Notes: generated by a model from the letters alone, not told the origin. DNA of 56,327 nucleotides from an uncultured Candidatus Saccharibacteria bacterium (GCA_964469335.1 CAYXYK010000005.1:1-56327), one strand, 5' to 3'. Counted from the first letter of the stretch, positions 9,835 to 56,327 are shown. Numbers and translations: made by a program.

Positions 9835-10604
9835 ACCCATCACAAATGTGGACAAGCTACTACACCATCGTACGTAAAGAAGTCGTGCGACTCTTTCGTA
9901 TCTGGTCACAGACCTTTCTCCCGCCGGTGATCACCACCTCCCTCTACTTTCTGATCTTCGGGAAGTTTATCGGAAGCCAGATCGAGCCGATAGGGGATGT
10001 CACCTACATGCAGTTCATCGTCCCCGGTCTGGTGATGATGTCGGTGATCATGCAGTCATTCATGAACTCGGCGTTCACGTTCTACATGGCGAAGTTCCAG
10101 AAGACCCTTGAAGAGGTCGCCGTGTCGCCTACGCCGTATCTTATTGTGATACTCGGACATGTATCTGCTGCGGTCATCCGCGGAATGATCACCGCAGGGA
10201 TCATCCTCGGTGTTGCGCTGTTCTTCACTCCGATCCACGTCCACTCGTATCTCCTTACTGTCGTGTTCATCTTCCTTTCCGCGCTGCTGTTCGCCCTTGC
10301 TGGGCTCATCAATGGCGTGTTCGCCAACTCGTTCGATACCGTACAGATCTTCCCGACCTTCGTACTCACTCCGCTGACGTATCTTGGTGGCGTCTTCTAT
10401 TCGGTGCACCTCCTCCCGCCTATTTGGCAAACGATCTCCTACGCTAACCCGATCGTCTATATGATCAATGGCTTCCGGTACGGCCTCCTCGGTGTCAGCG
10501 ACACCAGTGTTTGGACCTCGTTCTCCGTATTGGTGGCTTTGGTGTTCGTGATGGTGTTTGCGAATTGGTATGTGTTCAAAACTGGCCGCGGCCTTAGGGC
10601 ATAA
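9831..10604 (+). CDS. ABC-2 type permease (YadH-like)
   Basis: RIWSQT.LPPVIT..LYF.IFG, YMQFIVPGL and LTPLTYLGGVFYS motifs; overlaps the ATPase stop. Confidence 0.93.
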   Translation: MNPSQMWTSYYTIVRKEVVRLFRIWSQTFLPPVITTSLYFLIFGKFIGSQIEPIGDVTYMQFIVPGLVMMSVIMQSFMNSAFTFYMAKFQKTLEEVAVSPTPYLIVILGHVSAAVIRGMITAGIILGVALFFTPIHVHSYLLTVVFIFLSALLFALAGLINGVFANSFDTVQIFPTFVLTPLTYLGGVFYSVHLLPPIWQTISYANPIVYMINGFRYGLLGVSDTSVWTSFSVLVALVFVMVFANWYVFKTGRGLRA

Positions 10605-10780
10605 TTCAACTTGAGCGACCTGCTCGTCATTCCTTCGGCAAGTCGAGTCACCATAGATGACTATGGCTTCTCGACATTACCTCAGTCCATGACTTCGCAT
10701 TTCTTCTCAATTTGAATCATGCCGTAATTGCAAGCGATATGAATCTCGCATTAGAAGATTCGCAGGTGTAGAATTATTCC

Positions 10781-11194: not shown

Positions 11195-11229
11195 GGCCCG
11201 TCACCACGAGATCGACGGGCCTTTTTTTT
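11195..11229 (+). terminator. Intrinsic terminator
   Basis: GGCCCGTC...GACGGGCC followed by T8. Confidence 0.8.
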
Positions 11230-11230
11230 A

Positions 11231-11322
11231 CCAATTTTGCCCACCGCACAGAGTGTCGGTGGCAGCAAAATTGAGTATTTCCTGAATCGTCATGAAGGGA
11301 CGATTCAGGAAGCTCCGACTTT
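11231..11322. repeat. Double-hairpin repeat, family B copy 1
   Basis: CCAATTTTGCCCACC...GGTGGCAGCAAAATTGAG then TTCCTGAATCGTC...GACGATTCAGGAA-GCTCC. Confidence 0.85.
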
Positions 11323-11570
11323 TAAGTATCTCGGCGAAAAATAGAGGACTTTCAAAATTTAGCGAAGCAACTTGAGTCTTTTACTTAGGACACATTGGTT
11401 CGCGAGTGTCATCTCGTAACGTCACTTGTTGGTCTCTCTGTCACCATTGTGTCGTAATGCTTTATCCACAGAAATACTCTTGTCGTAGAAAAATAACACG
11501 ATACTATTGTATATGAATCCTGTGGGTTCTTAGTAGCCGGTACCGTCAATGGTCCCGGCTTCTGTTTTTC

Positions 11571-11740
11571 CCAATTTTGCCCACCGCGCAAAGCGTCGGC
11601 GGCTGCAAAATTGAGGATGTCTTAAATCGCCATGTCGAGGCGATTTAAGACCCCCCCAGATTTTTCTCATTGCGCAAAGCGCAATGGTGAAAAATTGAGG
11701 ACTTCCGAAATTGCTATTGCAGAGCAATTTCGGAAGCTCA
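11571..11740. repeat. Double-hairpin repeat, family B copies 2 and 3 in tandem
   Basis: Units at 11571 and ~11658, each with a CAATTTT..AAAATTGAGG hairpin plus a second hairpin. Confidence 0.85.
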
Positions 11741-12566: not shown

Positions 12567-12602
12567 GAAATACGGAAAGTTGTACACAGATTGTCCACGT
12601 TC

Positions 12603-12689
12603 CCAATTTTGCCCACCACGCAAAGCGATGGTGGCTGCAAAATTGAGGACTTCTGAAATCGTCACGAGAAGACGATTTCAGAAGCTCCA
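12603..12689. repeat. Double-hairpin repeat, family B copy 4
   Basis: CCAATTTTGCCCACC..GGTGGCTGCAAAATTGAGGAC then TTCTGAAATCGTC..GACGATTTCAGAA-GCTCC. Confidence 0.85.
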
Positions 12690-12785
12690 AGTATCCACAT
12701 CTTATCCACGTAAAAAATAGGAGCAGGAGGTACAGGTTGTTACAATTATGACAAGCAAACGTTACCGCGTTGCGCGATTCTTTCC

Positions 12786-14789
12786 ATGAGTGACCAAGTG
12801 AGGAAAATCACCATCAATCTGCGTTCGGCTGTGAAAAAACACCCCGAAGCTGCTCCTGTGCACCATGAAGTAAAAGCGCCTCAACATCCTCCTCACGCTG
12901 AGGAGGAGAAAGTCCTCCCCGTGAAAAAAGCGGACAAGCCGCACGTGCGCGTACTCACTGCCCGTCATGCCGAAGAGAAGTCGATCCCGCTCGAAGTGGC
13001 TAAGACGCATCAGACCGCCGCGTCTCCCGTGGTACCCGTCACCCAGCATGCTGAGGCGTTGGTCCCATCAAAAATGGTGGTACCGAAGAAACCGACCCAG
13101 CTTGAGGGCGTCTCAATCGGAGCACTCTCGATCGGCTATTTTTGTATGGAAATGGGACTCGAGAGCGATGTCCCGACCTATGCGGGCGGCCTCGGCATCC
13201 TTGCTGGTGACATGATGAAAAGCTGCGCCGATCTCGACGTCCCCGTCGTCGGAGTCACCCTCTTGTACCGCAAGGGCTATTTCAAACAACGATTCGACCA
13301 CAGCGGCTGGCAGTTCGAAGAAGATGAGTTTTGGGATCCGCGAGAGCATCTGATCCCGCTCGCAAAGGAAGTCGTCGTCGAACTTGAAGGCCGAAGGGTC
13401 CACGTGCGCGCATGGATGTACAAACTCTCCGGAGCGCGAGGGAGAGTGAATCCGATTCTCTTCCTCGATACCGATATCGAAGGCAATAGCGACGACGACC
13501 GTCATCTCACTGACCGGCTCTATACCGGTGACTCGCGCTATCGACTGCTGCAGGAGGCGATCCTCGGCATCGCCGGAGTCCGGATGCTCATCGCTCTTGG
13601 TGCGACGAATATCCAGAAGTTCCACATGAACGAAGGGCATTCGGCGCTACTCACCATTGAACTCTATCGCCAGTATGCTTCCTGCGCTGAGCCGATCGAA
13701 GAGGTCCGCCGTCGTACGGTGTTCACCACCCATACGCCGGTCGCCGCAGGGCACGACATCTTCGGGCAAGACCTCGCACTCTCGGTTCTGGGTGTGCACT
13801 TCGTTCCGTCCGCTATCGAAAGTATCGTCTTCCGGAGTGGGGTCCTGCATATGACCGAACTTGCGATGCATTTCGCGGGATTCATCAACGGAGTCGCGAA
13901 ACGTCACGGAGAAGTGACTCGTCAGCTTTTCCCGGGCTACTCGATCGAATCCATCACCAACGGTGTCTATGCGGCAGGTTGGGTCGGCCCGGGCATGGCA
14001 CGCCTCTACGATCATTACCTTCCCGGCTGGAAGACCGATCCGTATTCACTTCGCTATGCGCTTTCCATTCCTACCGAAGATCTCTGGCAGGGGCACATGG
14101 ATGACAAGCGTGCGCTCATCAAGTACGTCAACGAGACGCACAATGCAGAGATGGACCCCGACGTCTTCACCATCGGTTTCGCTCGTCGTGCGACCGAGTA
14201 CAAGCGCGGCAACATGTTGTTCGCTGACGTCGAACGACTCGCGCGCATTGCAGAGAAGTCGAAGGGAATACAGATCATCTATGCCGGCAAGGCACACCCT
14301 GCAGACAACAACGGCAAACTGCTCATCCAGGAGATCATGCGCAACATGGAGCGTCTCGGTAGTAAGGTACGGTGCATCTATCTCACCAACTACGACATGA
14401 AGATGGCGAAGCGGCTGGTCGCCGGTGTCGACCTGTGGCTCAACACTCCGACGAGGCCGCAGGAAGCATCAGGAACATCAGGGATGAAGGCAGCATGTAA
14501 CGGCGTGCCACAATTCTCCATCCTCGATGGTTGGTGGATCGAAGGACACATCGAGGGAGTGACCGGCTATTCGATCGGTGCGCATCCGGAAGAAGGTGAG
14601 CGCCCGAATGCCAACTACGAGGATATCGAGGACATGTACCGCAAGCTCGAATATGTCATCCTTCCGCGTTTCGAGAACGAGCATGATCGTTGGGTCAAGA
14701 TGATGCGACAGGCGATCGCGGTGAACGGGTCGTTCTTCAATACTCATCGCATGGTCGAACAGTACGTCCTCGGGGCATATTTCAAATGA
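12786..14789 (+). CDS. glgP: Alpha-glucan (glycogen/maltodextrin) phosphorylase, GT35
   Basis: YFCMEMG, YAGGLGILAGD, HMNEGH, FTTHTPV, ITNGV, GFARRATEYKR and EASGTSGMKA (PLP lysine) motifs; ~115-aa low-complexity N-terminal extension, start uncertain. Confidence 0.95.
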   Translation: MSDQVRKITINLRSAVKKHPEAAPVHHEVKAPQHPPHAEEEKVLPVKKADKPHVRVLTARHAEEKSIPLEVAKTHQTAASPVVPVTQHAEALVPSKMVVPKKPTQLEGVSIGALSIGYFCMEMGLESDVPTYAGGLGILAGDMMKSCADLDVPVVGVTLLYRKGYFKQRFDHSGWQFEEDEFWDPREHLIPLAKEVVVELEGRRVHVRAWMYKLSGARGRVNPILFLDTDIEGNSDDDRHLTDRLYTGDSRYRLLQEAILGIAGVRMLIALGATNIQKFHMNEGHSALLTIELYRQYASCAEPIEEVRRRTVFTTHTPVAAGHDIFGQDLALSVLGVHFVPSAIESIVFRSGVLHMTELAMHFAGFINGVAKRHGEVTRQLFPGYSIESITNGVYAAGWVGPGMARLYDHYLPGWKTDPYSLRYALSIPTEDLWQGHMDDKRALIKYVNETHNAEMDPDVFTIGFARRATEYKRGNMLFADVERLARIAEKSKGIQIIYAGKAHPADNNGKLLIQEIMRNMERLGSKVRCIYLTNYDMKMAKRLVAGVDLWLNTPTRPQEASGTSGMKAACNGVPQFSILDGWWIEGHIEGVTGYSIGAHPEEGERPNANYEDIEDMYRKLEYVILPRFENEHDRWVKMMRQAIAVNGSFFNTHRMVEQYVLGAYFK

Positions 14790-14901
14790 TTTTGGGTCAT
14801 AGCATTGTTGCGTGCGTCACGAGTCGGCTCAATGTGCAGTCAGCACATCTCACCGACATCGTTCCTGCGCGCCTCGCTCTGACCTCAAAATAATTTGAAA
14901 T
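14779..14901. repeat. Long fold-back hairpin whose outer stem includes the glgP stop codon
   Basis: ATTTCAAATGATTTTGGGTCA pairs with TGACCTCAAAATAATTTGAAAT; inner stems GTCGG/CCGAC and ATGTGC/GCACAT. Confidence 0.8.
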
Positions 14902-14967
14902 AATATGTAAGTTTGCACTCGACGTCATTCCTCAGAATTTCAATAAAATATTTGCTATACTATATAT

Positions 14968-18883: not shown

Positions 18884-21190
18884 ATGTCGAGCGCATCCAC
18901 ATCGAGAGCTGCCAAGGCGGTTGTCGTAAAGGCGAAAGCCGGTTCAGTATTAAAGGAGGTTCGTAAGCGCGACGGTTCAGTCGCCCCGTTCGACAAGGAA
19001 CATATCAAGAGCGCAGTCCTCCGTGCGATGCTCGCATCAGGCGAAGGAGGGGAGAAGGACGCAGATGTCGTCACTCACGCTGTCGTCAGTGCGCTTGAGA
19101 AGATCGTGAAGGGTCGCAAGGGCTATATCCCGAGCGTCGAAGAGATCCAGGACACCGCAGAAGCGGAACTCATCTACAAGAATTTCGCAAAGACCGCGAA
19201 GGGTTACATCATCTATCGCGAAGAGCACAAGAAGATCCGCGAAGTCACCGGCATCGTCCCAGAGGCGATCAAGGAGCTCGCACGTGAGTCGAAGAAATAT
19301 TTCCGCAATTCACTCGCGGAGTTCGTCTACTACCGCTCGTACTCACGCTGGATCGATCACGAACAGCGCCGCGAGACCTGGATCGAGACCGTCGACAGAT
19401 ACATGAACTTCATGCGCGAGAATCTCGACAAGAAGCTCACCGAGAAGGAGTACGACGAAGTGCGCGAGGCGATCCTTCGCCACGACGTGATGCCATCGAT
19501 GCGCCTGATGTGGGGTGCAGGCCCGGCAGCAAGGAAGACCAACGTCGTCGCGTACAACTGCTCGTTCATCGCTCCGTCGAAGCTCCGCGATTTCGGCGAG
19601 ATCATGTATCTCTCGATGTGCGGTACCGGCGTCGGCTACTCGGTCGAGTCACTCACCGTGCAGCAGCTTCCGCAGATCAAGAAGCAGACCGGCAAGGCGC
19701 ACAAAGTGCATGTGGTCGGCGACTCCAAGGAAGGTTGGGCAGATGCCTACGTCACTGGACTTGAGGCATGGTTTAACGGCGAGGACATCAAATTCGACTA
19801 CTCACAGCTTAGGCCAGCTGGTGCGCGCCTCATGACCATGGGCGGCAAATCTTCAGGCCCGCAGCCACTTGTGAATCTCATCGACTTCACTCGCGAGAAG
19901 GTATTCAAGCGCCAGGGTCGCCGCCTCTCGAACCTCGATGTCCACGATATCGTCTGTAAAATAGGTGAAGTCGTAGTGTCCGGCGGCGTAAGGCGTAGCG
20001 CACTCATCTCACTCTCAGACCTCGACGATTACGAGATGCGCCATGCCAAGGACGGACAGTTCTACGTCACCGAGCCACAGCGCATGATGGCGAACAACTC
20101 GGCCGTCTACACCCATCGCCCGTCGACTGCAGAGTTCATGGACGAATGGATAAGTTTGATGAAGTCAGGCTCAGGCGAGCGCGGTATCTTCAATCGTGGT
20201 TCACTCGAGAAGCAGATCCCGGAGCGCCGCAAGAAGACCCTGATGAAGGGGATCGACACCTGTGGTACCAACCCGTGCGGTGAGATCATCTTGAAGAGTA
20301 AGCAGTTCTGCAACCTCACCGAAGTCGTCATTCGCGCAGAGGACACCAAGCACACCCTCTTGAAGAAGATGCGCCTCGCAGCCATCCTCGGTACCTACCA
20401 GTCGACCCTCACCAACTTCAAGTATCTTTCGGCAGAGTGGAAGAAGAACTGTGAGGAAGAGCGCCTCCTTGGTGTCTCGATCACCGGCCAGTGGGACAAT
20501 CCGGAGCTCGTCCACGACCCGAAAGTCCTCGCAGACCTTCGCGACGAAGCAGTCGCCGTAAACAAGACCTATGCAAAGCGCTTCGGCATCAACCAGTCTG
20601 CAGCCGTCACCGCGGTCAAGCCTTCAGGCACTGTCTCGCAGCTCGTCGACGCATCAAGCGGTATGCACCCTCGCCACGCTCCGTACTACATCCGCCGCAT
20701 CCGCATCAGCGCCTCGGACGCACTCTTCAAGATGCTCCGCGATCAGGGCATTCCGTTCGCACCCGAAGTCGGACAGAGCGCAGAGAACGCCGTCACTTAC
20801 GTGATCGACTTCCCGGTCAAGTCTCCGAACCAAGCGGTCGTGAAGGATGACATCACCGCACTCGAGCAGCTCGTCCACTGGAAGCTCATCAAAGAGAATT
20901 ACACCGAGCACAATCCGTCCGTGACGATTTCGGTAGGGGAGAACGAATGGCTCGCCGTCGCATCATGGCTGTATGAGAACTGGGACATGGTGGGAGGACT
21001 TTCATTCCTGCCTCGCTCGGAGCACGTCTACCAGCTCGCGCCGTATGAGGAGATCACCAAGGAGAAGTATGAGGATCTCGCAAAAAGATGGGAGGATATC
21101 GATTTCTCGAAGATCGTGAGTTACGAGAAGCTGGATGAGACGCAGGGGGCGAAAGAGCTAGCCTGTGTCTCCGGCGTCTGCGAAATCTAG
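18884..21190 (+). CDS. nrdJ: Class II (adenosylcobalamin-dependent, monomeric RTPR-type) ribonucleotide reductase with N-terminal ATP cone
   Basis: ATP cone VRKRDG...FD..I, PSMRLMW.AG, GGVRRSALISLS, TNPCGEI, CNLTEV, AVKPSGTVSQL and C-terminal CVSGVCEI. Confidence 0.93.
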   Translation: MSSASTSRAAKAVVVKAKAGSVLKEVRKRDGSVAPFDKEHIKSAVLRAMLASGEGGEKDADVVTHAVVSALEKIVKGRKGYIPSVEEIQDTAEAELIYKNFAKTAKGYIIYREEHKKIREVTGIVPEAIKELARESKKYFRNSLAEFVYYRSYSRWIDHEQRRETWIETVDRYMNFMRENLDKKLTEKEYDEVREAILRHDVMPSMRLMWGAGPAARKTNVVAYNCSFIAPSKLRDFGEIMYLSMCGTGVGYSVESLTVQQLPQIKKQTGKAHKVHVVGDSKEGWADAYVTGLEAWFNGEDIKFDYSQLRPAGARLMTMGGKSSGPQPLVNLIDFTREKVFKRQGRRLSNLDVHDIVCKIGEVVVSGGVRRSALISLSDLDDYEMRHAKDGQFYVTEPQRMMANNSAVYTHRPSTAEFMDEWISLMKSGSGERGIFNRGSLEKQIPERRKKTLMKGIDTCGTNPCGEIILKSKQFCNLTEVVIRAEDTKHTLLKKMRLAAILGTYQSTLTNFKYLSAEWKKNCEEERLLGVSITGQWDNPELVHDPKVLADLRDEAVAVNKTYAKRFGINQSAAVTAVKPSGTVSQLVDASSGMHPRHAPYYIRRIRISASDALFKMLRDQGIPFAPEVGQSAENAVTYVIDFPVKSPNQAVVKDDITALEQLVHWKLIKENYTEHNPSVTISVGENEWLAVASWLYENWDMVGGLSFLPRSEHVYQLAPYEEITKEKYEDLAKRWEDIDFSKIVSYEKLDETQGAKELACVSGVCEI

Positions 21191-21311
21191 CCCATTTTCA
21201 GCGCATTACTTTGTCGCAATAAAGCGGCGACCCCATCACGGTACGAGAGTACCGCTCAGGGGTACGCCGCTTTTTGCTTCGCGTACTGCATCTGAAAATG
21301 GGCTAGATTTC
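21182..21311. repeat. Hairpin element A flanked by a perfect 20-bp inverted repeat that includes the nrdJ stop
   Basis: GAAATCTAGCCCATTTTCAG (21182-21201) and CTGAAAATGGGCTAGATTTC (21292-21311); core shared with 44400-44488. Confidence 0.88.
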
Positions 21312-21345
21312 TGGACTACTATCAGAATATAAGTAAAATTAATGT

Positions 21346-21684
21346 ATGTTATTTCAAGTAAAGACAGGAGCTTTCGAAGTCATTGATTCGGGAGTTCTTC
21401 ATGTGATTGAAGATGAGGTAACCATATTGAGATTAGGTGACGTTAGTTTTTCACTTATTTTTGAAAAAAATGATGATGGCAAACAAGCAGTAGCATTTGA
21501 GGCTTCTGATAAAAAAAATGCCAAACTCATTCTCACAAATGTGCAAGGCCCTTTAGGTTATGGAACGACAAAGCCATTTCAGGTTGGAGACAGAGACGGA
21601 AAAGGATTGTTTTTGACTTTTGTAACTAGATCCCTAAACGATACTTATCTTCGTACATTTGAATATACACTTTATACAAAATGA
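21346..21684 (+). CDS. Hypothetical protein, DUF6864-like
   Basis: EVIDSG, LGYGTTKPFQVG and FEYTLY resemble my recollection of this family; AT-rich codon usage. Confidence 0.6.
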   Translation: MLFQVKTGAFEVIDSGVLHVIEDEVTILRLGDVSFSLIFEKNDDGKQAVAFEASDKKNAKLILTNVQGPLGYGTTKPFQVGDRDGKGLFLTFVTRSLNDTYLRTFEYTLYTK

Positions 21685-21938
21685 GCAACGTTGAATTACA
21701 AGGAGATTCAAATCCGCCAGCCGGCTCGTCGATACCGGAGAAACAAGAAGATACTCGCGGGTGGTTAGCAAAGGGCGTTTTTATTCTCCTTTCATTATTT
21801 GTTTTTGCAATTTTTCTCGCCGTCGTATTTTTAGACATAACACAAGAGAAATTGACGATATTGCTGTCAGTATTTTCAGGAATTACAGGAATTCTTGGTT
21901 TTGTAATGGGTTTCTATTTTGGCCAAAATCAAAAATGA
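21681..21938 (+). CDS. Hypothetical two-TM protein
   Basis: ATGA overlap with the upstream gene; two TMs; GILGFVMGFYFG. Confidence 0.7.
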   Translation: MSNVELQGDSNPPAGSSIPEKQEDTRGWLAKGVFILLSLFVFAIFLAVVFLDITQEKLTILLSVFSGITGILGFVMGFYFGQNQK

Positions 21939-22052
21939 TCCAAGGAAATGGGCTGCCGTCTGCGAGGACGAGGAATCGGGGTCAGGCACCAATTAAATCG
22001 TAAAATGTATGGTGGGGTTTCGGGTTTGAGAGAGAGGGTATAGAGTGAATTT

Positions 22053-22346
22053 ATGGATACTGTCATCGAAATGTATTTCAAAATTCTGATATCAGTCATA
22101 ATGCTCTGCGGAGGGGTGTATGTGCTCACACACGTAAAATCACTCGCTCAACGCTTGCAGAATTCTTATATACAAAAAGCTGAGGAGTCACAAAAAGCCA
22201 CAGGGGTACTTGCCGCACTCAATCGCAGTAACCCCGAGAAGTGGAAGACACCTTACATGACGTTCATTTTTAAATTCATGGTGGCATTTTTCGGAGTGTG
22301 GTTGCTGCTCGGCATCGTTGCTGTTTTCGGTCCTATAGAACTCTGA
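22053..22346 (+). CDS. Hypothetical two-TM protein
   Basis: Hydrophobic N- and C-terminal helices. Confidence 0.6.
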   Translation: MDTVIEMYFKILISVIMLCGGVYVLTHVKSLAQRLQNSYIQKAEESQKATGVLAALNRSNPEKWKTPYMTFIFKFMVAFFGVWLLLGIVAVFGPIEL

Positions 22347-22399
22347 GTAGGCTTTGAGTCTGCCTTCACGGGGGCAGTGAGTGGGGTTATAGTTAATCC

Positions 22400-22816
22400 A
22401 TGCTTGAGCGTTCAATGGCGGCACTTATGTTGCTACTCTTGGGAATTGCAGCGGCAAACTCCCAAGGTTTTTTTCGCTATGTTCCTATTGCGGTCATGGT
22501 GCCGATTGCGTTCTGGTTCTTTGGTAAGTTATTTGAGTACCGCTTCGATACCGATAAAATAACGATAATATTCTGCACCATACTCCCGATATGGTCCATT
22601 CGGTACTCGAATATCGTGAAAGCGAATATGGTTGACCATATGCTTTGGGCAAGACCAATGTTCTCAACAACTTTCCGAAATACGTACGTCGGCCCTTATA
22701 TCGAACTTGAATTGGAACATGTTTTCTATAAGACAATTTTTATTGACCCTCCTGATAGAAAGAAATTCTTAAGTGAACTTGATCTGCACTCGCGAGCGAG
22801 TGGCAAAGTAAAATAA
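22400..22816 (+). CDS. Membrane-anchored bacterial PH-domain protein
   Basis: Two TMs, then YRFDTDKITI...IRYSNI...TIFIDPPDRKKFL..L. Confidence 0.6.
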   Translation: MLERSMAALMLLLLGIAAANSQGFFRYVPIAVMVPIAFWFFGKLFEYRFDTDKITIIFCTILPIWSIRYSNIVKANMVDHMLWARPMFSTTFRNTYVGPYIELELEHVFYKTIFIDPPDRKKFLSELDLHSRASGKVK

Positions 22817-22884
22817 ATGGAAATGCGGGCGGGGGGCATGAGTTAAGAAAAATGGAGGGAGAATTTTGGGGAATAAAAAACCAA

Positions 22885-22980
22885 GCCACAAGTCACTAGG
22901 CATATGCGGAGCAGAGCTCCTTATCTGCCAAGTGCTCCCGGCCCTGTCTCGTCGTCACAGGTGACATGACTCCGACTCGT
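22885..22980 (-). repeat. GGTCGC...GTGACC family copy not linked to a tRNA
   Basis: Minus strand GAGTCGG...GAGCACTTGG-CAGATAAGGAGCTCTGCTCCGCATATG-CCTAGTGACTTGTGGC aligns with the 48203 copy. Confidence 0.7.
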
Positions 22981-23027
22981 TTTCGTTCGGCAAAAGCAAA
23001 GCAGTTTGCTTTTGCAAATACTGAAAC

Positions 23028-23076
23028 GAAAACGCCCGAACATGTCGGGCGTTGTGGGTCTCGCGGTGGAGACGGG
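23028..23076 (-). repeat. Cassette junction type I (terminator plus GTCTC hairpin), orphan copy
   Basis: AACGCCCGAACATGTCGGGCGTTGTGGGTCTCGCGGTGGAGACGGG, near-identical to 23701 and 24517. Confidence 0.85.
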
Positions 23077-23094
23077 TGGGGAATATGTATTAGT

Positions 23095-23123
23095 TTGACG
23101 GAAGCTATATCGTATGGTAACGT
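23095..23123 (+). promoter_or_regulatory. Sigma70 promoter
   Basis: TTGACG-17 nt-TAACGT. Confidence 0.65.
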
Positions 23124-23164
23124 TTTCGTCAGTTCATAGTCCCCATTTCGCGAAAGGAATACCC

Positions 23165-23641
23165 ATGCCGAAGATCGAGTATGTGCTCTGGTGGCTCGAG
23201 GTCGCGTCACAAGAGATGCTGAGTGATCCCAAGAGCGTGCTCCACAGTCACACGCATCCGAACTACAGTGGCGGGAAACACGGTTGGGAACAGGAGATTC
23301 ATGAGATCTACTTGCACCCAGAGACCCTTGAGGAGTGGCTCTTGGCATGCGAAGTCAAGGCGACCCTCGAGGAAGCATTCAAGAGGTGCGTCGATGCCGC
23401 GCGCACCCCTCGCGACTTTTGCGGCACGTTCATCACATTCGACCCGTTCGACATCGGTGAGGTGTATCGGCTTGCGAGCTTGCTCGCGCTCCGCGACCCA
23501 CGCCATGTTGCAGCCAGCAAGGTCATGATGAATGGCTGGTGCTGCCGCCGCGGCAACTGCGCTGTCGACGATTCCTTGCTGCGACAAGTCCGCAAGGGTT
23601 TCGCTGGCTCGATGATCCCAACGAAAGAGTTCTCGTTGTGA
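23165..23641 (+). CDS. Hypothetical protein
   Basis: SD GAAAGGA before ATG 23165; own promoter; palindromic terminator at 23644-23680. Confidence 0.7.
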   Translation: MPKIEYVLWWLEVASQEMLSDPKSVLHSHTHPNYSGGKHGWEQEIHEIYLHPETLEEWLLACEVKATLEEAFKRCVDAARTPRDFCGTFITFDPFDIGEVYRLASLLALRDPRHVAASKVMMNGWCCRRGNCAVDDSLLRQVRKGFAGSMIPTKEFSL

Positions 23642-24439: not shown

Positions 24440-24516
24440 ATGAGGCCCTTTCCAATGAGCGAGTTGAAATTCCAAATATAGTTCTACGGTATTTCCTCAA
24501 TGTGTCAATAAAAACC

Positions 24517-27565: not shown

Positions 27566-28861
27566 ATGAATGAAGCAAAACGAGGAGAGGCTCAGTATTG
27601 GTGGAAGAACGCGACCATCTATGAGCTATACGTCGACAAATTCGCCGGTGACTTCAAGGGGCTAACGACAAAGCTCGACTACCTCGTTTCACTTGGAATA
27701 AATACGCTCCATATCCTCCCGCATTATCCGTCTCCGATGATCGATGAGGGGTATGATATCACCGACTACCGCAATGTTCGTCCTGAGCTCGGGACACTCG
27801 ATGACATGCGGGAGTGTATCGCACAGGCAAAAGCTCGCGGTATACATATCATCCTCGACATGGTACTCAACCATGTCTCTTCGCAGCACCCGTGGTTCAT
27901 TGCAGCGCGCTCATCAAAAGATGATACCAAAAGGGGATATTTCCTCTGGAGCGAAACAGGAACCGAGTACCCAGACTCGCTCAATGCGTTTCCTGACATC
28001 AAGCCATCGAACTGGATAGCCGATCCTCTCACCGGCGACTTTTATTTCGCAACTTTCTACCCCGAGCAGCCGGATCTCAACTGGGATAACCCAGAGGTCG
28101 TGGAAGGCATGCTCGCTAACATGGATTTCTGGGCTGAAATGGGAGTGGACGGATTTCGGCTCGACGCTGCTTGTTTCCTCATCAAGCGTGCCGGAACGAA
28201 TTGCAGGGGATTGCCGGAGACTCATGCGATGATCAAACGTGTCCGCAAACATCTCGATGAGAAGTACCCGCGCGGAGTTGTGCTGCTCGGGGAAGCAGCA
28301 CAAAGCATCGAAGAGACGAAAGCGTATTTCGGCGACGGGGATGAGTGTCAGTTGATGTATAATTTCCCGCTCATGGCTGAGATGTGGCTTTCATTGAAAG
28401 ATGGGAATCCTTCCGCAGCGAGACGGATGTCAGAGCTCTCAAATGGAATTCCCGAGACTTGTGAATGGGCGACCTTTGTTCGGAATCATGATGAGATCGA
28501 GCTCCGCTTTCTCGAGTCTGCCGAAGTGAGATCAGGATTGCTCGATTTTTTGGATCCTGCAAAGGAATATCTTTTCAACAAGGGTGTCGCAACATCGAAA
28601 CGTATCGCCAGTATATTCACGGATAAGAAAGATATGCTCGCTGCATTCGAACTTCTCTACGCTCTCCCTGGTGCTCCGGTCATGTATTACGGAGACGAGA
28701 TCGGAATGCGAAATCTTCCCGTTATGGTCGGCATCGTCGATACGCGAAAATATGTACGCGGCCCGTTCGACTGGGTCGAGGCAGAGAGGCAGGAGGAGGA
28801 TCCCTCTTCTTTGCTCGTTGAGGTGAGAAGAGTGATCGCGAATCGCAACACTTCTTTATAA
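27566..28861 (+). CDS. GH13 alpha-amylase family, trehalose synthase (TreS)-like
   Basis: DEGYDITDY, DMVLNHVSSQHPWF, QPDLNWDNP; catalytic GFRLDA, LLGEA and RNHDE; lacks the C-terminal beta domain. Confidence 0.88.
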   Translation: MNEAKRGEAQYWWKNATIYELYVDKFAGDFKGLTTKLDYLVSLGINTLHILPHYPSPMIDEGYDITDYRNVRPELGTLDDMRECIAQAKARGIHIILDMVLNHVSSQHPWFIAARSSKDDTKRGYFLWSETGTEYPDSLNAFPDIKPSNWIADPLTGDFYFATFYPEQPDLNWDNPEVVEGMLANMDFWAEMGVDGFRLDAACFLIKRAGTNCRGLPETHAMIKRVRKHLDEKYPRGVVLLGEAAQSIEETKAYFGDGDECQLMYNFPLMAEMWLSLKDGNPSAARRMSELSNGIPETCEWATFVRNHDEIELRFLESAEVRSGLLDFLDPAKEYLFNKGVATSKRIASIFTDKKDMLAAFELLYALPGAPVMYYGDEIGMRNLPVMVGIVDTRKYVRGPFDWVEAERQEEDPSSLLVEVRRVIANRNTSL

Positions 28862-28893
28862 AAAAGCACCCGCCGGGTGGCGGGGCTTGGGGG
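28858..28893. repeat. 36-bp direct repeat (junction type II), left copy
   Basis: ATAAAAAAGCACCCGCCGGGTGGCGGGGCTTGGGGG, identical at 29935-29970. Confidence 0.92.
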
Positions 28894-29906: not shown

Positions 29907-29935
29907 ATTATACTATATTTTTGTTATAAAGTCAA
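29907..29935 (-). promoter_or_regulatory. Near-consensus sigma70 promoter fused to the junction terminator
   Basis: TTGACT-17 nt-TATAAT on the minus strand. Confidence 0.85.
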
Positions 29936-29970
29936 TAAAAAAGCACCCGCCGGGTGGCGGGGCTTGGGGG
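29935..29970. repeat. 36-bp direct repeat (junction type II), right copy
   Basis: Identical to 28858-28893. Confidence 0.92.
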
Positions 29971-37660: not shown

Positions 37661-37669
37661 CCATTTGCC

Positions 37670-38007
37670 CTGCATTGGGCAGTCGCCGTCGATCTATAAC
37701 ATCGACGGAGGAAAGTCTGAACTCCCACTCTGTATAAGAGTTAAGAGGGTAGTGGGCAATTCCCATCGTCCGCAAGGATAGAGGTGCGAGCAGAGACGCT
37801 TCAGACGAAAGAACGAAGCATCCGTCGCAAGGTGGATGAGTCCTCATGGCAACATGAGGGGTGAAACGGCTAAATCCTTACTCGGGTGCAAGGCCGTGCC
37901 TTCCGCAAGGAGGGAGTGCCGCTTGAGCGTGTCGGTAACGATGCGCCTAGATAAATGACTGCACAGGATGCGTAAGTATCCGGACAGAATTCGGCTTATA
38001 GATGCAG
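37670..38007 (+). ncRNA. rnpB: RNase P RNA
   Basis: GAGGAAAGTC, GGTGAAACGG, ACAGAATTCGGCTTAT P4 motifs; P1 CTGCAT/ATGCAG. Confidence 0.96.
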
Positions 38008-38279
38008 AGCGCATGAAAGAACCACCCAAAAGGTGGTTCTTTCTCGATATTTTTTATCACGAAAACATGATGGTTGGCATCATCTCAGATTTATTGTGAA
38101 ATTTATGAATTGTGCACATTTTTCACACGATTTCATCCCGTACACATGTTATACTCTATGGGCTAAAACTCTTTTGGAGGAAGAGCGATATTTGCAAACG
38201 CGTTCGTGGATGAGAATATTTTTTCGTTCACGCACGAGACTGCAGTGTTCGATTTATTATAGGTATTCAATAGTTATTT

Positions 38280-42582: not shown

Positions 42583-44385
42583 ATGGACCGGAAACACATA
42601 AGGAATTTCAGTATTATCGCCCATATTGACCACGGAAAATCGACCCTCGCGGATCGGCTTCTTGAGATCACCCACACCATCGAAAAGCGCAAGATGCAGG
42701 AGCAAGTACTCGACTCGATGGAGCTCGAGCGCGAGCGCGGTATCACTATTAAGATGCAGCCGGTACGGATGAGCTACAAGAAAGGGGATGAAGAGTACCT
42801 GATCAACCTGATCGACACCCCGGGGCATATCGATTTTTCCTACGAAGTCTCTCGTGCGCTGAACGCGGTCGAAGGAACACTGCTCTTGGTGGATTCGACT
42901 CAGGGCGTGCAGGCACAGACGCTCACCACGCTCCAGATGGCGCGAGAGCATGGCCTCACCATCATCCCAGTACTCTCGAAGATCGATTCACCGCTCGCGC
43001 GCGTGGACGAAGTGCGGGACGAGATCGTCTCGCTCCTCAAAGTGGATCCGAGCGAAGTGATGCTTGTCTCCGGACGTACCGGCGAAGGAGTCCCAGAGTT
43101 GCTTGACGAGATAGTGAGGCGCATTCCTCCACCATCTGAGGAATTTGCCGGCACCAAGAGTGCCCGCGCGCTTATTTTCGATTTTTCATACTCCAACCAC
43201 CGTGGTGTCATCCTTTATGTGCGCGTGCTCGACGGAAGTGTGAAGAAAGGAAGTGAACTCATCTTCCTCGGCGCAAAAGAGAAGTTCTTTGCGGTCGAGG
43301 TGGGATATTTCGCCCCCGCACAGACCGAGAAGAACGAACTCATGGCAGGAGAGATCGGATACATCGTCTCCGGGATCAAACGTCCGGGAGTCGCGGGTGT
43401 TGGTGATACGGTCACCGTGTTCAAAGAGCAGCTACCAGCTCTTCCCGGCTATGCAAAGCCAAGGCCGGTGGTATGGGCTTCGGTCTTTCCGGAGAGTCAG
43501 GATGATCTTTCGATGTTGCGCCAAGCACTTGAGCGATTGCAGCTTTCGGATTCATCGCTGACGTTCGAAGAGGAGGCATCCGGAAATCTCGGCCGCGGAT
43601 TCCGTTGCGGTTTTCTCGGTATGCTCCATCTTGAGATCATCACTGAACGATTGAAACGCGAATTCGATCTCGAGCTCGTCGTCACCACTCCGACTATCAC
43701 GTATGAAATTACCCACAAACAGACCAAGGAGGTCGACATCATCTACTCTCCCGCGCTCTTTCCCGATGATGCGTTCATCGCATCAGTCCGTGAGCCATGG
43801 ATCGATGGAGAGATCATTCTCCCGCCCGATTACGTCGGTCCGGTCAATCAGCTCCTGTACGAACATGAAGCTGAGTCCGGCAATACCGACATCTTCGGAG
43901 AGAATCGTTTCAAGGTGGAGTTCAAGATGCCGCTACGAGAACTCATGCGTGGATTCTTCGATAAGCTGAAATCGGTTTCATCCGGTTTCGCGAGTCTCTC
44001 GTATGAGCTCGGCGGGTTTCGAGACGCCGAAGTAACCCGTATGGACATTCTCGTGAATGATGAGCCGGTGTCCGCATTCTCTCGCGTCGTATCCAAACGC
44101 CGCGCACAGGAGGAAGGGGAGGCAGCAGTGAAGAAACTCGCCAAGGCGATGCCTCGTCAGATGATCGTCGTGAAGATGCAGGCAAAAGTGATGGGCAAGA
44201 TCATCTCCTCAGAACGCCTCTCTGCACTCAAAAAGGACGTCACTGGATATCTCTATGGAGGAGACATCACCCGCAAAATGAAGCTGCGCGAGAAGCAAAA
44301 GAAAGGAAAGAAGAAGATGCAGGAGATGGGGAATGTGAATATTCCGCAGGATGTGTTTGTCGCCATGATCCGCCCCGATGAATAA
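42583..44385 (+). CDS. lepA: Translation elongation factor 4 (LepA)
   Basis: IRNFSIIAHIDHGKSTLADRLL, ERERGITIK, DTPGHIDF, GFRCGFLGMLH and K.KLREKQK.GKKKM motifs. Confidence 0.98.
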   Translation: MDRKHIRNFSIIAHIDHGKSTLADRLLEITHTIEKRKMQEQVLDSMELERERGITIKMQPVRMSYKKGDEEYLINLIDTPGHIDFSYEVSRALNAVEGTLLLVDSTQGVQAQTLTTLQMAREHGLTIIPVLSKIDSPLARVDEVRDEIVSLLKVDPSEVMLVSGRTGEGVPELLDEIVRRIPPPSEEFAGTKSARALIFDFSYSNHRGVILYVRVLDGSVKKGSELIFLGAKEKFFAVEVGYFAPAQTEKNELMAGEIGYIVSGIKRPGVAGVGDTVTVFKEQLPALPGYAKPRPVVWASVFPESQDDLSMLRQALERLQLSDSSLTFEEEASGNLGRGFRCGFLGMLHLEIITERLKREFDLELVVTTPTITYEITHKQTKEVDIIYSPALFPDDAFIASVREPWIDGEIILPPDYVGPVNQLLYEHEAESGNTDIFGENRFKVEFKMPLRELMRGFFDKLKSVSSGFASLSYELGGFRDAEVTRMDILVNDEPVSAFSRVVSKRRAQEEGEAAVKKLAKAMPRQMIVVKMQAKVMGKIISSERLSALKKDVTGYLYGGDITRKMKLREKQKKGKKKMQEMGNVNIPQDVFVAMIRPDE

Positions 44386-44506
44386 CACAAGATTCTGACG
44401 CATTGCTTTGTCGCAATACGGCGGCGACCCCATCACAATACAGGAGTACTGCTCAGGGGTACGCCGCCTTTTGCTTCGCGCACTGCATTCATAATCTTTT
44501 GTTATT
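44381..44506. repeat. Hairpin element A, second copy, flanked by a 14-bp inverted repeat that includes the lepA stop
   Basis: AATAACACAAGATT (44381-44394) and AATCTTTTGTTATT (44493-44506); core similar to 21202-21291. Confidence 0.85.
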
Positions 44507-44559
44507 GGCGTGAGAAGGGTAGAAAGTAGTAAAAATATTGCTCGTTTTGGTACATATGA

Positions 44560-44598
44560 AAAACCGCTCGGCACACTGGGGTGTGCGCGAGCGGCGGT
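44560..44598 (-). terminator. Terminator of the 44610 gene
   Basis: CCGCTCG-GCACAC-tggg-GTGTGC-GCGAGCGG with a T tract on the minus strand. Confidence 0.7.
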
Positions 44599-44609
44599 GT
44601 CAGGGGGGG

Positions 44610-44936
44610 CTACAGAGCGCCGAGCATCCACTCTGTCGGTGCGAAACCGATCGCTCCACGCATGATGATCATCTCGAGTGCGGCGTCTTCGGTCGGGGTC
44701 TCGGTCGCAAGACGCGCTGCGTGGAGCAGCTTCTTGACGGCTTCCTCGCCAGGGTAGAAGAGGCGGTTCGGCCTCTTGTGTCGTGCAGCCGAGCGTTCTT
44801 CGGTGAACGCCATCCAGTAGCGGATCAGCACGAAGTATGTCAGCTTGAGCGCCTCGTCTTTCTCGACCGCTCGGGTGAGGGCCGGGAGGGCAAGGAGGAA
44901 AACCTCCGAATTGGTTCCGTCGGGTTTCGATGGCAT
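44610..44936 (-). CDS. Hypothetical protein
   Basis: SD AGGAG; flanked by terminators. Confidence 0.65.
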   Translation of the reverse strand: MPSKPDGTNSEVFLLALPALTRAVEKDEALKLTYFVLIRYWMAFTEERSAARHKRPNRLFYPGEEAVKKLLHAARLATETPTEDAALEMIIMRGAIGFAPTEWMLGAL

Positions 44937-45049
44937 GTGTGCTCCTGTGTTGCTGGGAAAGAGTCCCGAAAAAGCGTAACACTAAATCCCATAAAAACAA
45001 ATCCCGACGGAGATTTCTCTCCGCCGGGATATTGTGATCAGGAAGCTGA

Positions 45050-45166
45050 TTATTCGAAGAACGGGGTGATGTAGAGGGCCACCATCGAAAAGGCGATGAA
45101 GACCACAATCACTCCCCATACTGCGTTCATGAGCTTCTTATGCTTCTTGTTTCTGAGGAATAGCAT
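45050..45166 (-). CDS. Small basic single-TM protein (38 aa)
   Basis: MLFLRNKKHKKLMNAVWGVIVVFIAFSMVALYITPFFE; terminator hairpin at 45000-45032; not in the ORF track. Confidence 0.6.
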   Translation of the reverse strand: MLFLRNKKHKKLMNAVWGVIVVFIAFSMVALYITPFFE

Positions 45167-45231
45167 GGTTTTTCTTGGGTAGTTCGGATAGTTATATTTC
45201 TTGACCGAATGCGCTGTAGTATACTATAGAC

Positions 45232-45642
45232 ATGCTCCGCGCGCTAGATTTCAGAGAAAGGACCCGAATTCGTCGTTTTGTCTATGCAAAACCGACCATT
45301 TTAGCGATGTTCGTCTTGTCGCTTCTCTCTCTGCATGGCGCATGGGGAATGTATCTGAAAAGCAAGGAAGCGCTTGCGAACAGGGACAAGGCGGTACTGG
45401 AAGCCAATGTGCTCATGGCTCATCAGCAAGAACTTCATGCAGATATCGGCAAACTTTCTTCCGACCGTGGGCAAGAAGAAGAGATACGCAACAGATTCAT
45501 GGTTGCGAAAGACGGTGAAAAAGTTATCATAGTATCCGAACCGGACGATGAAGTGCTGCATAGCGTCACGGTCGATGACAACAATCAGACCAGCACACTC
45601 ATCGACAGGTTCAAGGCAGCAGTCGGTTTGTCAGGCAATTAA
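45232..45642 (+). CDS. Septum formation initiator (FtsB/DivIC-like)
   Basis: TM, coiled coil, L.SDRGQEEEIRNRFMVAKDGEKVIIV motif. Confidence 0.8.
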   Translation: MLRALDFRERTRIRRFVYAKPTILAMFVLSLLSLHGAWGMYLKSKEALANRDKAVLEANVLMAHQQELHADIGKLSSDRGQEEEIRNRFMVAKDGEKVIIVSEPDDEVLHSVTVDDNNQTSTLIDRFKAAVGLSGN

Positions 45643-54423: not shown

Positions 54424-56327
54424 ATGAAAACCAACATCTTCACTTCGGTCAATAAAAAAGGTTTCGGTCACACAGTACTCGGGGTATTCCTGATGCTTTC
54501 ACTCGTGCTCCAGAACGCGGCATATGTACAATATGCTTTCGCAAACACCACCGAGGAAAGCTCGTCAGCAGTAGAGACGAGCATTGTCGTGGCGTCGAAC
54601 GATACTTCTACTGAAGAGCATGTGTCGCTTCAGACTGAAGAAAAGCATGACTCTGATGAGCACTCGAACGAGGGTGAGCGCGGAGAGAAGGAGGCGGTGC
54701 GACATGATGATGCCGACAGCGAAGAGCGTGGGGAAAAGCATGATGAAGAGCATGCTTCATCCCTCGGCGAGCATCATGATAGCGATGAAGACAACAACAA
54801 CGACGATGAGAACCATCACGTCGGAACGATCAAGGACATCTTCCACGGCATGAACGGTGCAAAGCCTGCCGTCACCATCGTTGCGCAAAAGGTCGTCTGT
54901 TCAGACGAATCGAAGCTTCCGAATTGGGGGCTCGGCGGTCCGGATATCACCGCACAAACTGCGACAGATTATGTCGCGTCGCACCCTGGCTGCGTCCTCA
55001 CTCCTGACTGGAAGTTCCAGTGGGGATTCTCCGGAGTGAAGGATCTCGGTGGCAGCTTCATCGGTGAAGCAGACGGATCGAAGGGAATCGGCTCGAACAC
55101 CGGTAGTGGACTTTCGGACTGGAAGACATTCGGTCCGAGTGATGCTAGCGGGGTTGCGACTGTGAAGGTATACGACCTTCAGGGTTCACCGAAGATATGG
55201 GTGCGCGAAGTCATGAAGGACGGCTATGTCCCGTTCAGCTATGACCCTGCACATCCGGTCAACGACAATCCGGTAAGCGCGGAGATGTACTGCAACTCTG
55301 ACGTACTCAATTATGATAACTATGACTTCATTGCGAATCCTTCACTTGGAGCAACCTACCACTGTGTTGCCTTCAATGCTGCGAAATCGGTAGTCCCTCC
55401 TCCTGTTGTGGTCAGCGCAAGCTGTCCTTTCACCGCGGCGACCGGTACCTATGTCGTCAATTATGGTACTGCTCGCAGCATCATCTCCAGCGGCAGTCAT
55501 GCTGATGCCAATGTCACCAAAGACATCAATATCCCAGTAGGTACCTATGAGGTATCGCTCTTCTCATATGATACTTCGGCGACTCGAAGCACTGAAACCC
55601 AGCCGAATGAGAAGTGGTACCTCCGGATTCATAATGGAACGACGCTGATCTCGACCTCAAGTGCGATCGGAGATCTTGCGGATAATGTCACCGAAGCATC
55701 GCGCACACAGTATGTCGGTGATGTCGTACTCAGTACCCCCGCCACGATGGTCATGGCGAAACACGCTGCTTGGCCTGACACCTCTTCGACGAACGCGCTC
55801 TATCCCGTATGTGCACAGCTCAAACTGAAGACCACTCCGGTCAACCAGGCTCCGGTTATCACTGTTGTCGGTGAGAACCCGCTCACGATCGTTCAGAATA
55901 CTGTCTTCACTGACCCAGGAGCGACCGCATTCGATCTCGAAGACGGAACCATCACTCCTGTAGCGACAGGCACTGTAAACTCATCAGTCATCGGTTCATA
56001 CGTCATTACGTACACCGCCACTGACTCGAAGGGCGCCACAGCGACCCCGAAGACGCGCACCGTGAACGTCGTGCCGCAGGGAGGCGGTTGCACCTCGAAC
56101 TGCACTGCGACTAACACCGCTCCGGTCATTACCGTCATTGGTCTGAACCCGCTCACGATCGTTCAGAATACTGTCTTCATTGACCCAGGAGCGACCGCAT
56201 TCGATCTCGAAGACGGAACCATCACTCCTGTCGCAACTGGGACCGTGAATACTGCTGCAACCGGCACATATATCATTACGTACACCGCCACTGACTCGAA
56301 GGGCGCCACAGCGACCCCGAAGACGCG
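54424..56327 (+). CDS. Large secreted surface protein with DUF5011/HYR-like Ig repeats (3' end runs off the window)
   Basis: Frame open from ATG 54424 to the window end; N-terminal TM/signal; His/Asp/Glu-rich linker; APVITVVGENP...F.DPGATAFD.EDG...Y.ITYTATDSKG repeats; missing from the ORF track because no stop is present. Confidence 0.88.
   Translation, partial: MKTNIFTSVNKKGFGHTVLGVFLMLSLVLQNAAYVQYAFANTTEESSSAVETSIVVASNDTSTEEHVSLQTEEKHDSDEHSNEGERGEKEAVRHDDADSEERGEKHDEEHASSLGEHHDSDEDNNNDDENHHVGTIKDIFHGMNGAKPAVTIVAQKVVCSDESKLPNWGLGGPDITAQTATDYVASHPGCVLTPDWKFQWGFSGVKDLGGSFIGEADGSKGIGSNTGSGLSDWKTFGPSDASGVATVKVYDLQGSPKIWVREVMKDGYVPFSYDPAHPVNDNPVSAEMYCNSDVLNYDNYDFIANPSLGATYHCVAFNAAKSVVPPPVVVSASCPFTAATGTYVVNYGTARSIISSGSHADANVTKDINIPVGTYEVSLFSYDTSATRSTETQPNEKWYLRIHNGTTLISTSSAIGDLADNVTEASRTQYVGDVVLSTPATMVMAKHAAWPDTSSTNALYPVCAQLKLKTTPVNQAPVITVVGENPLTIVQNTVFTDPGATAFDLEDGTITPVATGTVNSSVIGSYVITYTATDSKGATATPKTRTVNVVPQGGGCTSNCTATNTAPVITVIGLNPLTIVQNTVFIDPGATAFDLEDGTITPVATGTVNTAATGTYIITYTATDSKGATATPKT
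55849..56327 (+). repeat. Intragenic tandem repeat, 270-nt period
   Basis: Units start at 55849 and 56119 with long identical stretches. Confidence 0.9.

Follow-up and report, generated by a model that had tools for sequence, protein, structure and literature searches.

The lepA gene in a 56,327-nt stretch of DNA from an uncultured Candidatus Saccharibacteria bacterium (the window, to which all coordinates refer) ends inside an imperfect palindrome of 126 nt at 44381-44506 on the + strand. The window is part of a 1.28-Mb genome of the candidate phyla radiation (CPR, Patescibacteria). The palindrome is best read, with a probability of roughly 0.6, as a long-resident member of an old family of palindromic repeats with many copies, the type being that known as enterobacterial repetitive intergenic consensus (ERIC) or intergenic repeat unit (IRU); it would form a gene-end hairpin with locus-tailored and maintained arms. 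The repeat appears to be an ERIC-type family in a new host phylum, distinguished by an unusually clear outer stem that is tailored to the locus and engulfs the stop codon. This outer stem is locus-specific, is inherited with the locus and is kept complementary, including to the last codons of the host gene.

The 3' end of lepA (elongation factor 4) reads GAT GAA TAA. The last codon GAA and the TAA (44383-44385) lie within the 5' arm of the outer stem (Table 1). The original prediction, made from the window alone, had described mirrored arms that include the lepA TAA and are complementary at 13 of 14 positions, and had named chance complementarity of AT-rich sequence as its refutation. The arms were confirmed and extend further, to 16/18 over the full arm length. 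Composition-preserving shuffles disfavour chance for the shorter stretches (p ~5e-5) as well as for the full arms (p ~5e-6), and in a genome-wide 18/90/18 scan a pairing of at least 16/18 occurred at only 5e-6 of the positions. The core between the arms has the layout CGCATTGC...TCAC-(apical hairpin CAATAC AGGA GTACTG)-CTCAGGGG...GCACTGCAT. The whole of 44381-44506 folds as a single hairpin, with -53.1 kcal/mol on the + strand (z = -4.9) and -62.8 kcal/mol on the - strand (z = -8.2).

The same core recurs behind nrdJ, at 89% identity. As originally noted, the two cores differ by substitutions in the outer stem (ACGGCGGCG/CGCCGCCTT at lepA) and at the apex (CAATAC-AGGA-GTACTG), and the nrdJ arms (GAAATCTAGCCCATTTTCAG / CTGAAAATGGGCTAGATTTC) are unrelated to those at lepA. 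Each copy forms one long hairpin that folds well beyond shuffled sequences. A consensus scan of 44250-45250 detected no intrinsic terminator on the + strand, hence none after lepA, and no promoter-like site at the lepA element; on reading the sequence, no T run was seen after the lepA copy or the nrdJ copy. An intrinsic (Rho-independent) terminator was rejected as an identity of the element because of the missing U tract after either copy and the negative + strand scan.

The designation as a second copy understated the family. A BLAST-level search of the genome yielded only the two near-identical copies, besides weak matches in relatives, which revealed conserved ends (CGCATT...CTGCAT), a TCAC-hairpin-CTCAG centre and compensatory changes. 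With R1, a covariance model derived from six sequences, 51 copies were detected in the genome, four of them in the window (at 10606, 14786, 21192 and 44389). Of 401 genomes of the order, 125 were positive with this model, many of them with at least nine copies. A second model (R2), like R1 trained on CPR copies only, was applied to 401 genomes drawn from the whole phylum; 43 of these contain the element, in a patchy distribution. Alignment of further copies and a test for covariation, as had been proposed, supported the fold: in 63 aligned copies 93% of the cells are paired (shuffles reach 63%), and for each of the 28 modelled pairs both partners have changed. The alignment was fitted to the model, which inflates pairing somewhat, yet a control with slid partners (31-48%) leaves a wide margin. 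Conserved unpaired motifs of the family are TCAC, CTC and CGCAT..CTGCAT. Rfam returned nothing relevant, neither at gathering thresholds over the whole window nor at E<=10 over 44300-44600.

The element has a length of 125-130 bp and consists of an asymmetric conserved core of ~90 nt closed by an outer stem of 15-19 bp. In the copy at 14786, behind a phosphorylase gene, the 5' arm TATTTCAAATGATTTTG holds the codons for Y, F and K together with the stop and is mirrored by CAAAATAATTTGAAATA. Tandem or inverted neighbours are common. A second copy lies ~10-20 nt from the first after lepA in three relatives (G019, L074; G020, L079; G010, L068), and further close pairs occur at L011:1623-1735 and, in this genome, at C3:197914/198274.

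The copies are docked on stop codons in one orientation. Using open reading frames (ORFs) from crude calls of our own, a co-oriented stop was found at most 15 nt from the 5' end of the model match in 39/51 copies, and a convergent ORF ending at the 3' side in only 2/51. Complementary arms outside the core are present in nearly every one of the 51 copies, and the left arm of one copy against the right arm of another scores about zero. The arm length has its mode at 15-19 nt (35/51 copies). Counted from the first arm base, the stop codon starts at -5 to +9 in 29/34 copies, and 6-12 nt of coding sequence are contained within the paired arm in 13 copies. Overall arm length is constant regardless of the stop position. 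Ordinary co-oriented genes follow most copies downstream. In genome G089, two perfect-armed copies (C7:26508-26616, L161, and C1:135109-135218, L160) are situated not on a co-oriented stop but between divergent promoters or in antisense to the closest gene end. Stop docking is not universal among young copies.

The lepA, nrdJ and phosphorylase loci were compared across 22 genomes of the genus. At lepA, most species of the genus carry an element, located 13-14 nt past the stop in nine species; the arms have diverged yet are still complementary, and all three stop bases are paired in ungapped register in 7/10. The site has been occupied since ancient times in the genus, so the lepA copy is not a fresh insertion, and the idea of a newly arrived copy generating its own arms had to be given up. 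In two relatives without the element (G003, G002), classical terminators are present after lepA instead. In G003, TTTGTTATTG directly follows the lepA stop, the same 10-mer as in the lepA 3' arm of this genome; it is suggestive of a deletion remnant, a match too short to rely on. At nrdJ, the element is present in most species, and this genome and G019 share the inner arm and the core ends. The two differ in TAG/TAA and ATC/ATT, and for both differences the 3' arm has a corresponding change (GGGCTAGAT vs. GAATTAAAT). These matched changes in the stop and the isoleucine codon indicate that pairing was maintained after insertion.

The gene ends themselves are native. LepA ends in ...PDE*, NrdJ in ...GVCEI* and the phosphorylase in ...AYFK*, and these ends are kept in relatives with and without the element. 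The NrdJ end, at times with one or two additional residues, is found throughout Patescibacteria, and AYFK* in all 15 species, element present or absent. The 3' arms pair with the native last codons at all three loci. In the 14786 copy, 10 nt of the phosphorylase coding end (TATTTCAAAT) are mirrored 10/10, and the nearest element-bearing relative has another offset and other arms. This match of the outer 3' arms to native gene ends supports the intuition of local mirroring in the original prediction, which had regarded the arms as copied from the local target. Their locus specificity and the inverted match to native coding sequence stood; their making on arrival at lepA did not. Across the aligned loci, the outer 3' arm appears moulded on the local sequence, and the moulding appears to have been maintained long after arrival.

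No true empty site and no filled-empty pair were found in the relatives compared. Strain-level relatives were not seen, the NrdJ cluster being present on one contig only. The distance between nrdJ and lepA is ~21 kb in this genome and 12-16 kb in G003, G010 and G019. The region after the nrdJ copy (21330-23200) has a low GC content (39-45%) and harbors a DUF6864 protein (21346-21684) and several ORFs without a family match. Relatives carry other sequence at this position.

The identity of 89% between the lepA and nrdJ cores is the maximum and the single outlier among 496 core pairs in the genome (median 51%, 95th percentile 65%). It ends exactly at the core boundaries, the inner arms being only 17-20% identical. 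Several of the ten core differences are compensatory, as read from the alignment. The outermost core helix tracks the locus lineage, with GCATTGC/GCACTGC at lepA (G013, G001) and GCATTAC/GTACTGC at nrdJ (G019); having two states only, this signal is suggestive and no more. From species to species the core subfamilies are reassorted among orthologous loci, and the lepA offset stays fixed. The most likely source of the high identity is an exchange of the core alone between two old resident copies and not a fresh insertion. Such an exchange would be a gene conversion or core replacement that left both arm sets untouched.

ERIC/IRU is the closest known kind of element, since models trained on CPR copies only gave their best match on all ERICs searched. 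Ten ERIC loci of Escherichia coli K-12 were searched with R1 and R2, filters off, and the best full-length match of both models in the same orientation coincided exactly with the ERIC in 10/10 loci. R2 scored 30-13.8 bits (E 1.7e-5 to 0.26 in a search space of 30-60 kb), with one unrelated match at E<=1. Single E-values are modest, and the link rests on the 10/10 coincidence. A strict-filter scan of the whole K-12 chromosome with R1 gave no match.

ERIC is described as a MITE (miniature inverted-repeat transposable element) of ~127 bp that has inverted repeats, is flanked by TA and affects mRNA decay (PMC3184786, PMC2267715). The size and the single long hairpin of the imperfect palindrome agree with the 126 nt found after lepA. 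Shared core motifs are CGTTG..., ACCCC-(A/G)-TCAC / ACCCC(A/G)GTCAC, an apical stem TAC..GTA, CTC..GGGGAT and CTTGCCGCCT..CTGCA. Strand asymmetry is shared as well: the strand antisense to the docked orientation folds ~10 kcal/mol better in 48/51 CPR copies and in 6/6 ERICs tested. Both are placed in intergenic positions, in transcribed spacers or at 3' ends. Among the K-12 copies, those flush with a stop (ybhI, cusC) have the CPR orientation, and the dxs and pgk copies, with 47 and 70 nt to the closest stop, the opposite one. TA is found at both outer ends of many copies, including the lepA copy, the nrdJ copy and most copies in G089. ERIC duplicates TA on insertion; for the CPR element, no clean empty site that would show such a duplication was found. 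In E. coli ERICs, the outermost ~7 bp are copy-specific yet complementary, as in the CPR arms. The end helices of four K-12 copies read AAATCCT/AGGATTT (L106), AATTTCC/GGAAATT (L110), CATACCC/GGGTATG (L115) and TATACTC/GAGTATA (L111).

Differences concern host, divergence, orientation and arms. ERIC is known from Enterobacteriaceae and Vibrionaceae, whereas the hosts of the CPR element are Patescibacteria, that of this genome being Candidatus Lloydbacteria-like according to the source of an NrdJ homologue. CPR copies are far more diverged, with a median core identity of 51% in one genome, and almost all are orientation-locked on stop codons. In the outer arms, most of the sequence is specific to the locus and can mirror native coding sequence as its inverted complement. 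The ERIC/IRU repeat is said to go back to Sharples and Lloyd in 1990 and Hulton and coworkers in 1991. Work on Yersinia by De Gregorio and coworkers in 2005 reportedly found a duplication of TA only and an orientation near stops as in K-12. A literature search found no paper describing ERIC-like elements in CPR bacteria.

A search with the joined ERIC primers was positive in each of 5,426 complete E. coli genomes. The ERIC between metR and metE of K-12 (NC_000913 4012914-4013023) is polymorphic, being full in 2,100 of the 5,426. Other alleles are 119 nt shorter and keep a right-end remnant of the ERIC only (L115 vs. L142). The short allele was rejected as an empty site: the retained remnant identifies it as a deletion.

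Other known repeats are less similar. Repetitive extragenic palindromes (REPs; with BIME and REPIN) are likewise multi-copy palindromes at gene ends that affect mRNA 3' ends. They differ in having 20-40 nt, a GTAG tag and a tie to RAYT (Y1) transposase genes. Y1_Tnp (PF01797) had no match in this genome and is absent from 42 of the 125 element-positive genomes of the order; its association with the element across the 401 genomes is weak (odds ratio 1.8, p 0.012, uncorrected for phylogeny). A REP/RAYT model was rejected, as there is no Y1 transposase here or in these 42 genomes. REPs within ~15 nt of a stop are said to stall ribosomes and to trigger trans-translation, according to Liang, Rudd and Deutscher in 2015. 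Correia/NEMIS elements of Neisseria and other MITEs (RUP, Nezha) resemble the CPR element in their ~100-160 bp, terminal inverted repeats and TA target, and are co-transcribed RNA hairpins processed by RNases (PMC3184786). MITEs share their inverted repeats from copy to copy and with an autonomous insertion sequence, whereas the CPR outer arms are only loosely conserved and no partner transposase was found in searches for Y1 and DDE_3. IS630-type DDE_3 was not detected in this genome; the search covered Y1_Tnp and DDE_3, and other transposase families were not searched. A retron msr-msd (reverse transcriptase context not looked at), 6S RNA and signal recognition particle RNA were dropped, lacking Rfam similarity or showing the wrong conservation pattern.

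By analogy with ERIC and REP, the element would be co-transcribed with the upstream gene. A terminating ribosome may melt the 5' arm of the hairpin, and the hairpin may tune 3'-end stability, processing or translation termination of the upstream mRNA. A very stable hairpin at the stop would presumably be harmful, and only the weaker-folding, C/U-rich strand would be tolerated there; the orientation lock and the strand asymmetry would both follow from such a constraint. We infer from this analogy a function as a transcript-end hairpin that interacts with termination.

Several observations weigh against this reading. The core shows no enrichment of G.U, with 40 against 36 A.C. In the arms, A.C outnumbers G.T by 17 to 4, and pyrimidine-pyrimidine mismatches dominate. 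Due to this mismatch spectrum, the antisense strand folds ~11 kcal/mol better; selection on a sense RNA would normally give the opposite. Nine copies in G089 have cores that are 95-99% identical and arms that are 30-40% different, four of them perfectly paired at 18/18. Slow compensatory evolution alone fits these arms poorly, and equally the 10-nt mirroring of native coding sequence in the 14786 copy, a locus at which the nearest relative differs in arms and offset. Among the two transposase families searched for (Y1_Tnp, DDE_3), no mobilising enzyme was found in the genome. This leaves a templated re-making of the arms, or a homogenisation that acts on the cores and spares the arms.

Templating of the arms is the foremost alternative, though an unlikely one. 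The mobile unit would be the core with short inner arms. At insertion, or in a later hairpin repair, the upstream flank would serve as the template for extending the 3' end of the folded element, and ~8-12 nt of inverted local sequence (the stop and the last codons) would be written as the outer 3' arm. The mirroring of native coding sequence (GAAATC plus TAG at nrdJ, all 10 nt at the phosphorylase) and the constant total arm length wherever the stop lies are in its favour. So are the young G089 copies with near-identical cores and different, often perfect 18/18 arms, the scarcity of wobble intermediates and the movement of the core without arms. No empty/filled pair was found that shows the event, and no enzyme candidate. 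Furthermore, the arms of G089 and G174 share a loose consensus (TAGAACTTnnnnATTTGG; TAAATCTAAATTTGG) bounded by TA...TA, which fits element-borne repeats and a TA target, the first element base completing TAA or TAG. Yersinia ERIC is reported to duplicate only TA (PMC3184786), and the stepwise compensatory changes in orthologous copies need no templating. An extension of the idea, slightly more doubtful, takes the ERIC-type elements from CPR to E. coli as a single ancient gene-end module whose outer stem would be written from the host gene by a hairpin-primed or templated step.

It is very improbable that the core was inserted in the loop of a pre-existing local hairpin, e.g. the terminator of the gene, so that the arms would be the old terminator stem. 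Unrelated arms between copies and the functional replacement of a terminator by the element would be explained. The arms, however, are AT-rich, form 15-19 bp, extend into coding sequence and have no U tract, whereas in the real terminators of this genome a T run follows a GC-rich stem. At element-less sites (lepA in G003, G002 and G006/G016; nrdJ in G011 and G021), no palindrome was found that spans the stop.

A stand-alone small RNA gene or self-cleaving ribozyme has an even lower probability. Strong covariation and the conserved unpaired motifs (TCAC, CTC, CGCAT..CTGCAT) would suit it, but a single genome holds 51 divergent copies without any Rfam match up to E<=10. The copies lie flush with stop codons, are palindromic on both strands and have no G.U bias, and no promoter-like site is present at the lepA copy.

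A recombination site bounding inserted cassettes, such as an integron attC, is the least probable explanation: an imperfect palindrome of attC-like length and the low-GC or family-less ORFs downstream of the nrdJ and lepA copies recall it, but the conservation is reversed (centre conserved and ends variable, where attC has a variable centre), RYYYAAC/GTTRRRY ends are lacking, copies are scattered behind housekeeping genes and not arrayed (intI was not searched for), ordinary co-oriented genes follow most of them, and throughout the genus the element occupies the same loci irrespective of the downstream sequence.

The minus-strand orphan cassettes that had been described behind the element correspond, loosely, to minus-strand ORFs after lepA (Table 1); a link between them and the element is unsupported. 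The 108-aa ORF has its own minus-strand, terminator-like hairpin at ~44560-44600.

Table 1. Copies of the element in the window, parts of the lepA copy, and adjacent reading frames.
Feature	Position	Strand	Remarks
lepA (elongation factor 4) ORF	42583-44385	+	Pfam GTP_EFTU, LepA_C, EFG_C; C-terminus conserved in the genus
lepA copy, 5' arm of outer stem, AATAACACAAGATTCTGA	44381-44398	+	holds the lepA TAA; 16/18 paired with the 3' arm
lepA copy, conserved core, 90 nt	44399-44488	+	89% identity to 21202-21291; 113 bits with covariance model R1; covariation
lepA copy, 3' arm, TCATAATCTTTTGTTATT	44489-44506	+	outer GTTATT pairs with AATAAC at the lepA end
nrdJ copy	21180-21313	+	arms GAAATCTAGCCCATTTTCAG / CTGAAAATGGGCTAGATTTC paired 20/20; core 21202-21291; nrdJ TAG (21188-21190) in the arm
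Third copy	14776-14906	+	after alpha-glucan phosphorylase-like gene (12786-14789)
Fourth copy	10596-10727	+	subfamily with CGTCATTCCTTCGG...CAGTCCATGAC; 2 nt after a co-oriented ORF
108-aa ORF	44610-44936	-	no Pfam or PADLOC match; membership of the element unsupported
45-aa ORF	44982-45119	-	by eye, adjoins lepA in relatives too

Further repeats and RNAs were observed in the window. A second repeat family of ~99 nt occurs at 11225-11323, 11565-11663 and 12597-12695, with 24-nt relatives at 11335 and 11688. It comprises two hairpins (CCCACCG...CGGTGG; GAATCGTC...GACGATTC) and has 3-5 occurrences in 1.5 kb. A direct repeat of 225 nt (55833-56057 / 56103-56327, 85% identity, spacing 270) runs into the window end and looks like a repetitive coding region. 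Identical or nearly identical terminator-like hairpins (AAAAAAGCACCCGCCGGGTGGCGGGGC) are located at 28858-28893 and 29935-29970, and also at 24508, 25885 and 36415. A class A RNase P RNA of a divergent CPR type was identified at 37667-38014 (122.7 bits, gathering score 100).

ERIC repeats have served as typing markers for decades and are regarded as peculiar to enterobacteria; how they spread, are maintained and function is unsettled. With the lepA copy and its 50 siblings, the ERIC architecture is present in an ultra-small CPR genome. CPR genomes hold very little non-coding DNA, and the retention of ~6.5 kb of hairpin repeat suggests a function. The complementarity of the hairpin base to the stop and the last codons of its gene, kept in a single orientation, suggests that the element interacts either with terminating ribosomes or with a DNA process specific to one strand. 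The element could help to annotate gene ends in CPR genomes without recognisable terminators. If the stem were indeed written from the host gene, the element would represent a target-templated inverted terminal repeat, every copy engulfing the stop of its own gene, and a conserved factor reading the invariant core loops would be implied. To our knowledge, a repeat of this kind has not been described for any transposon.

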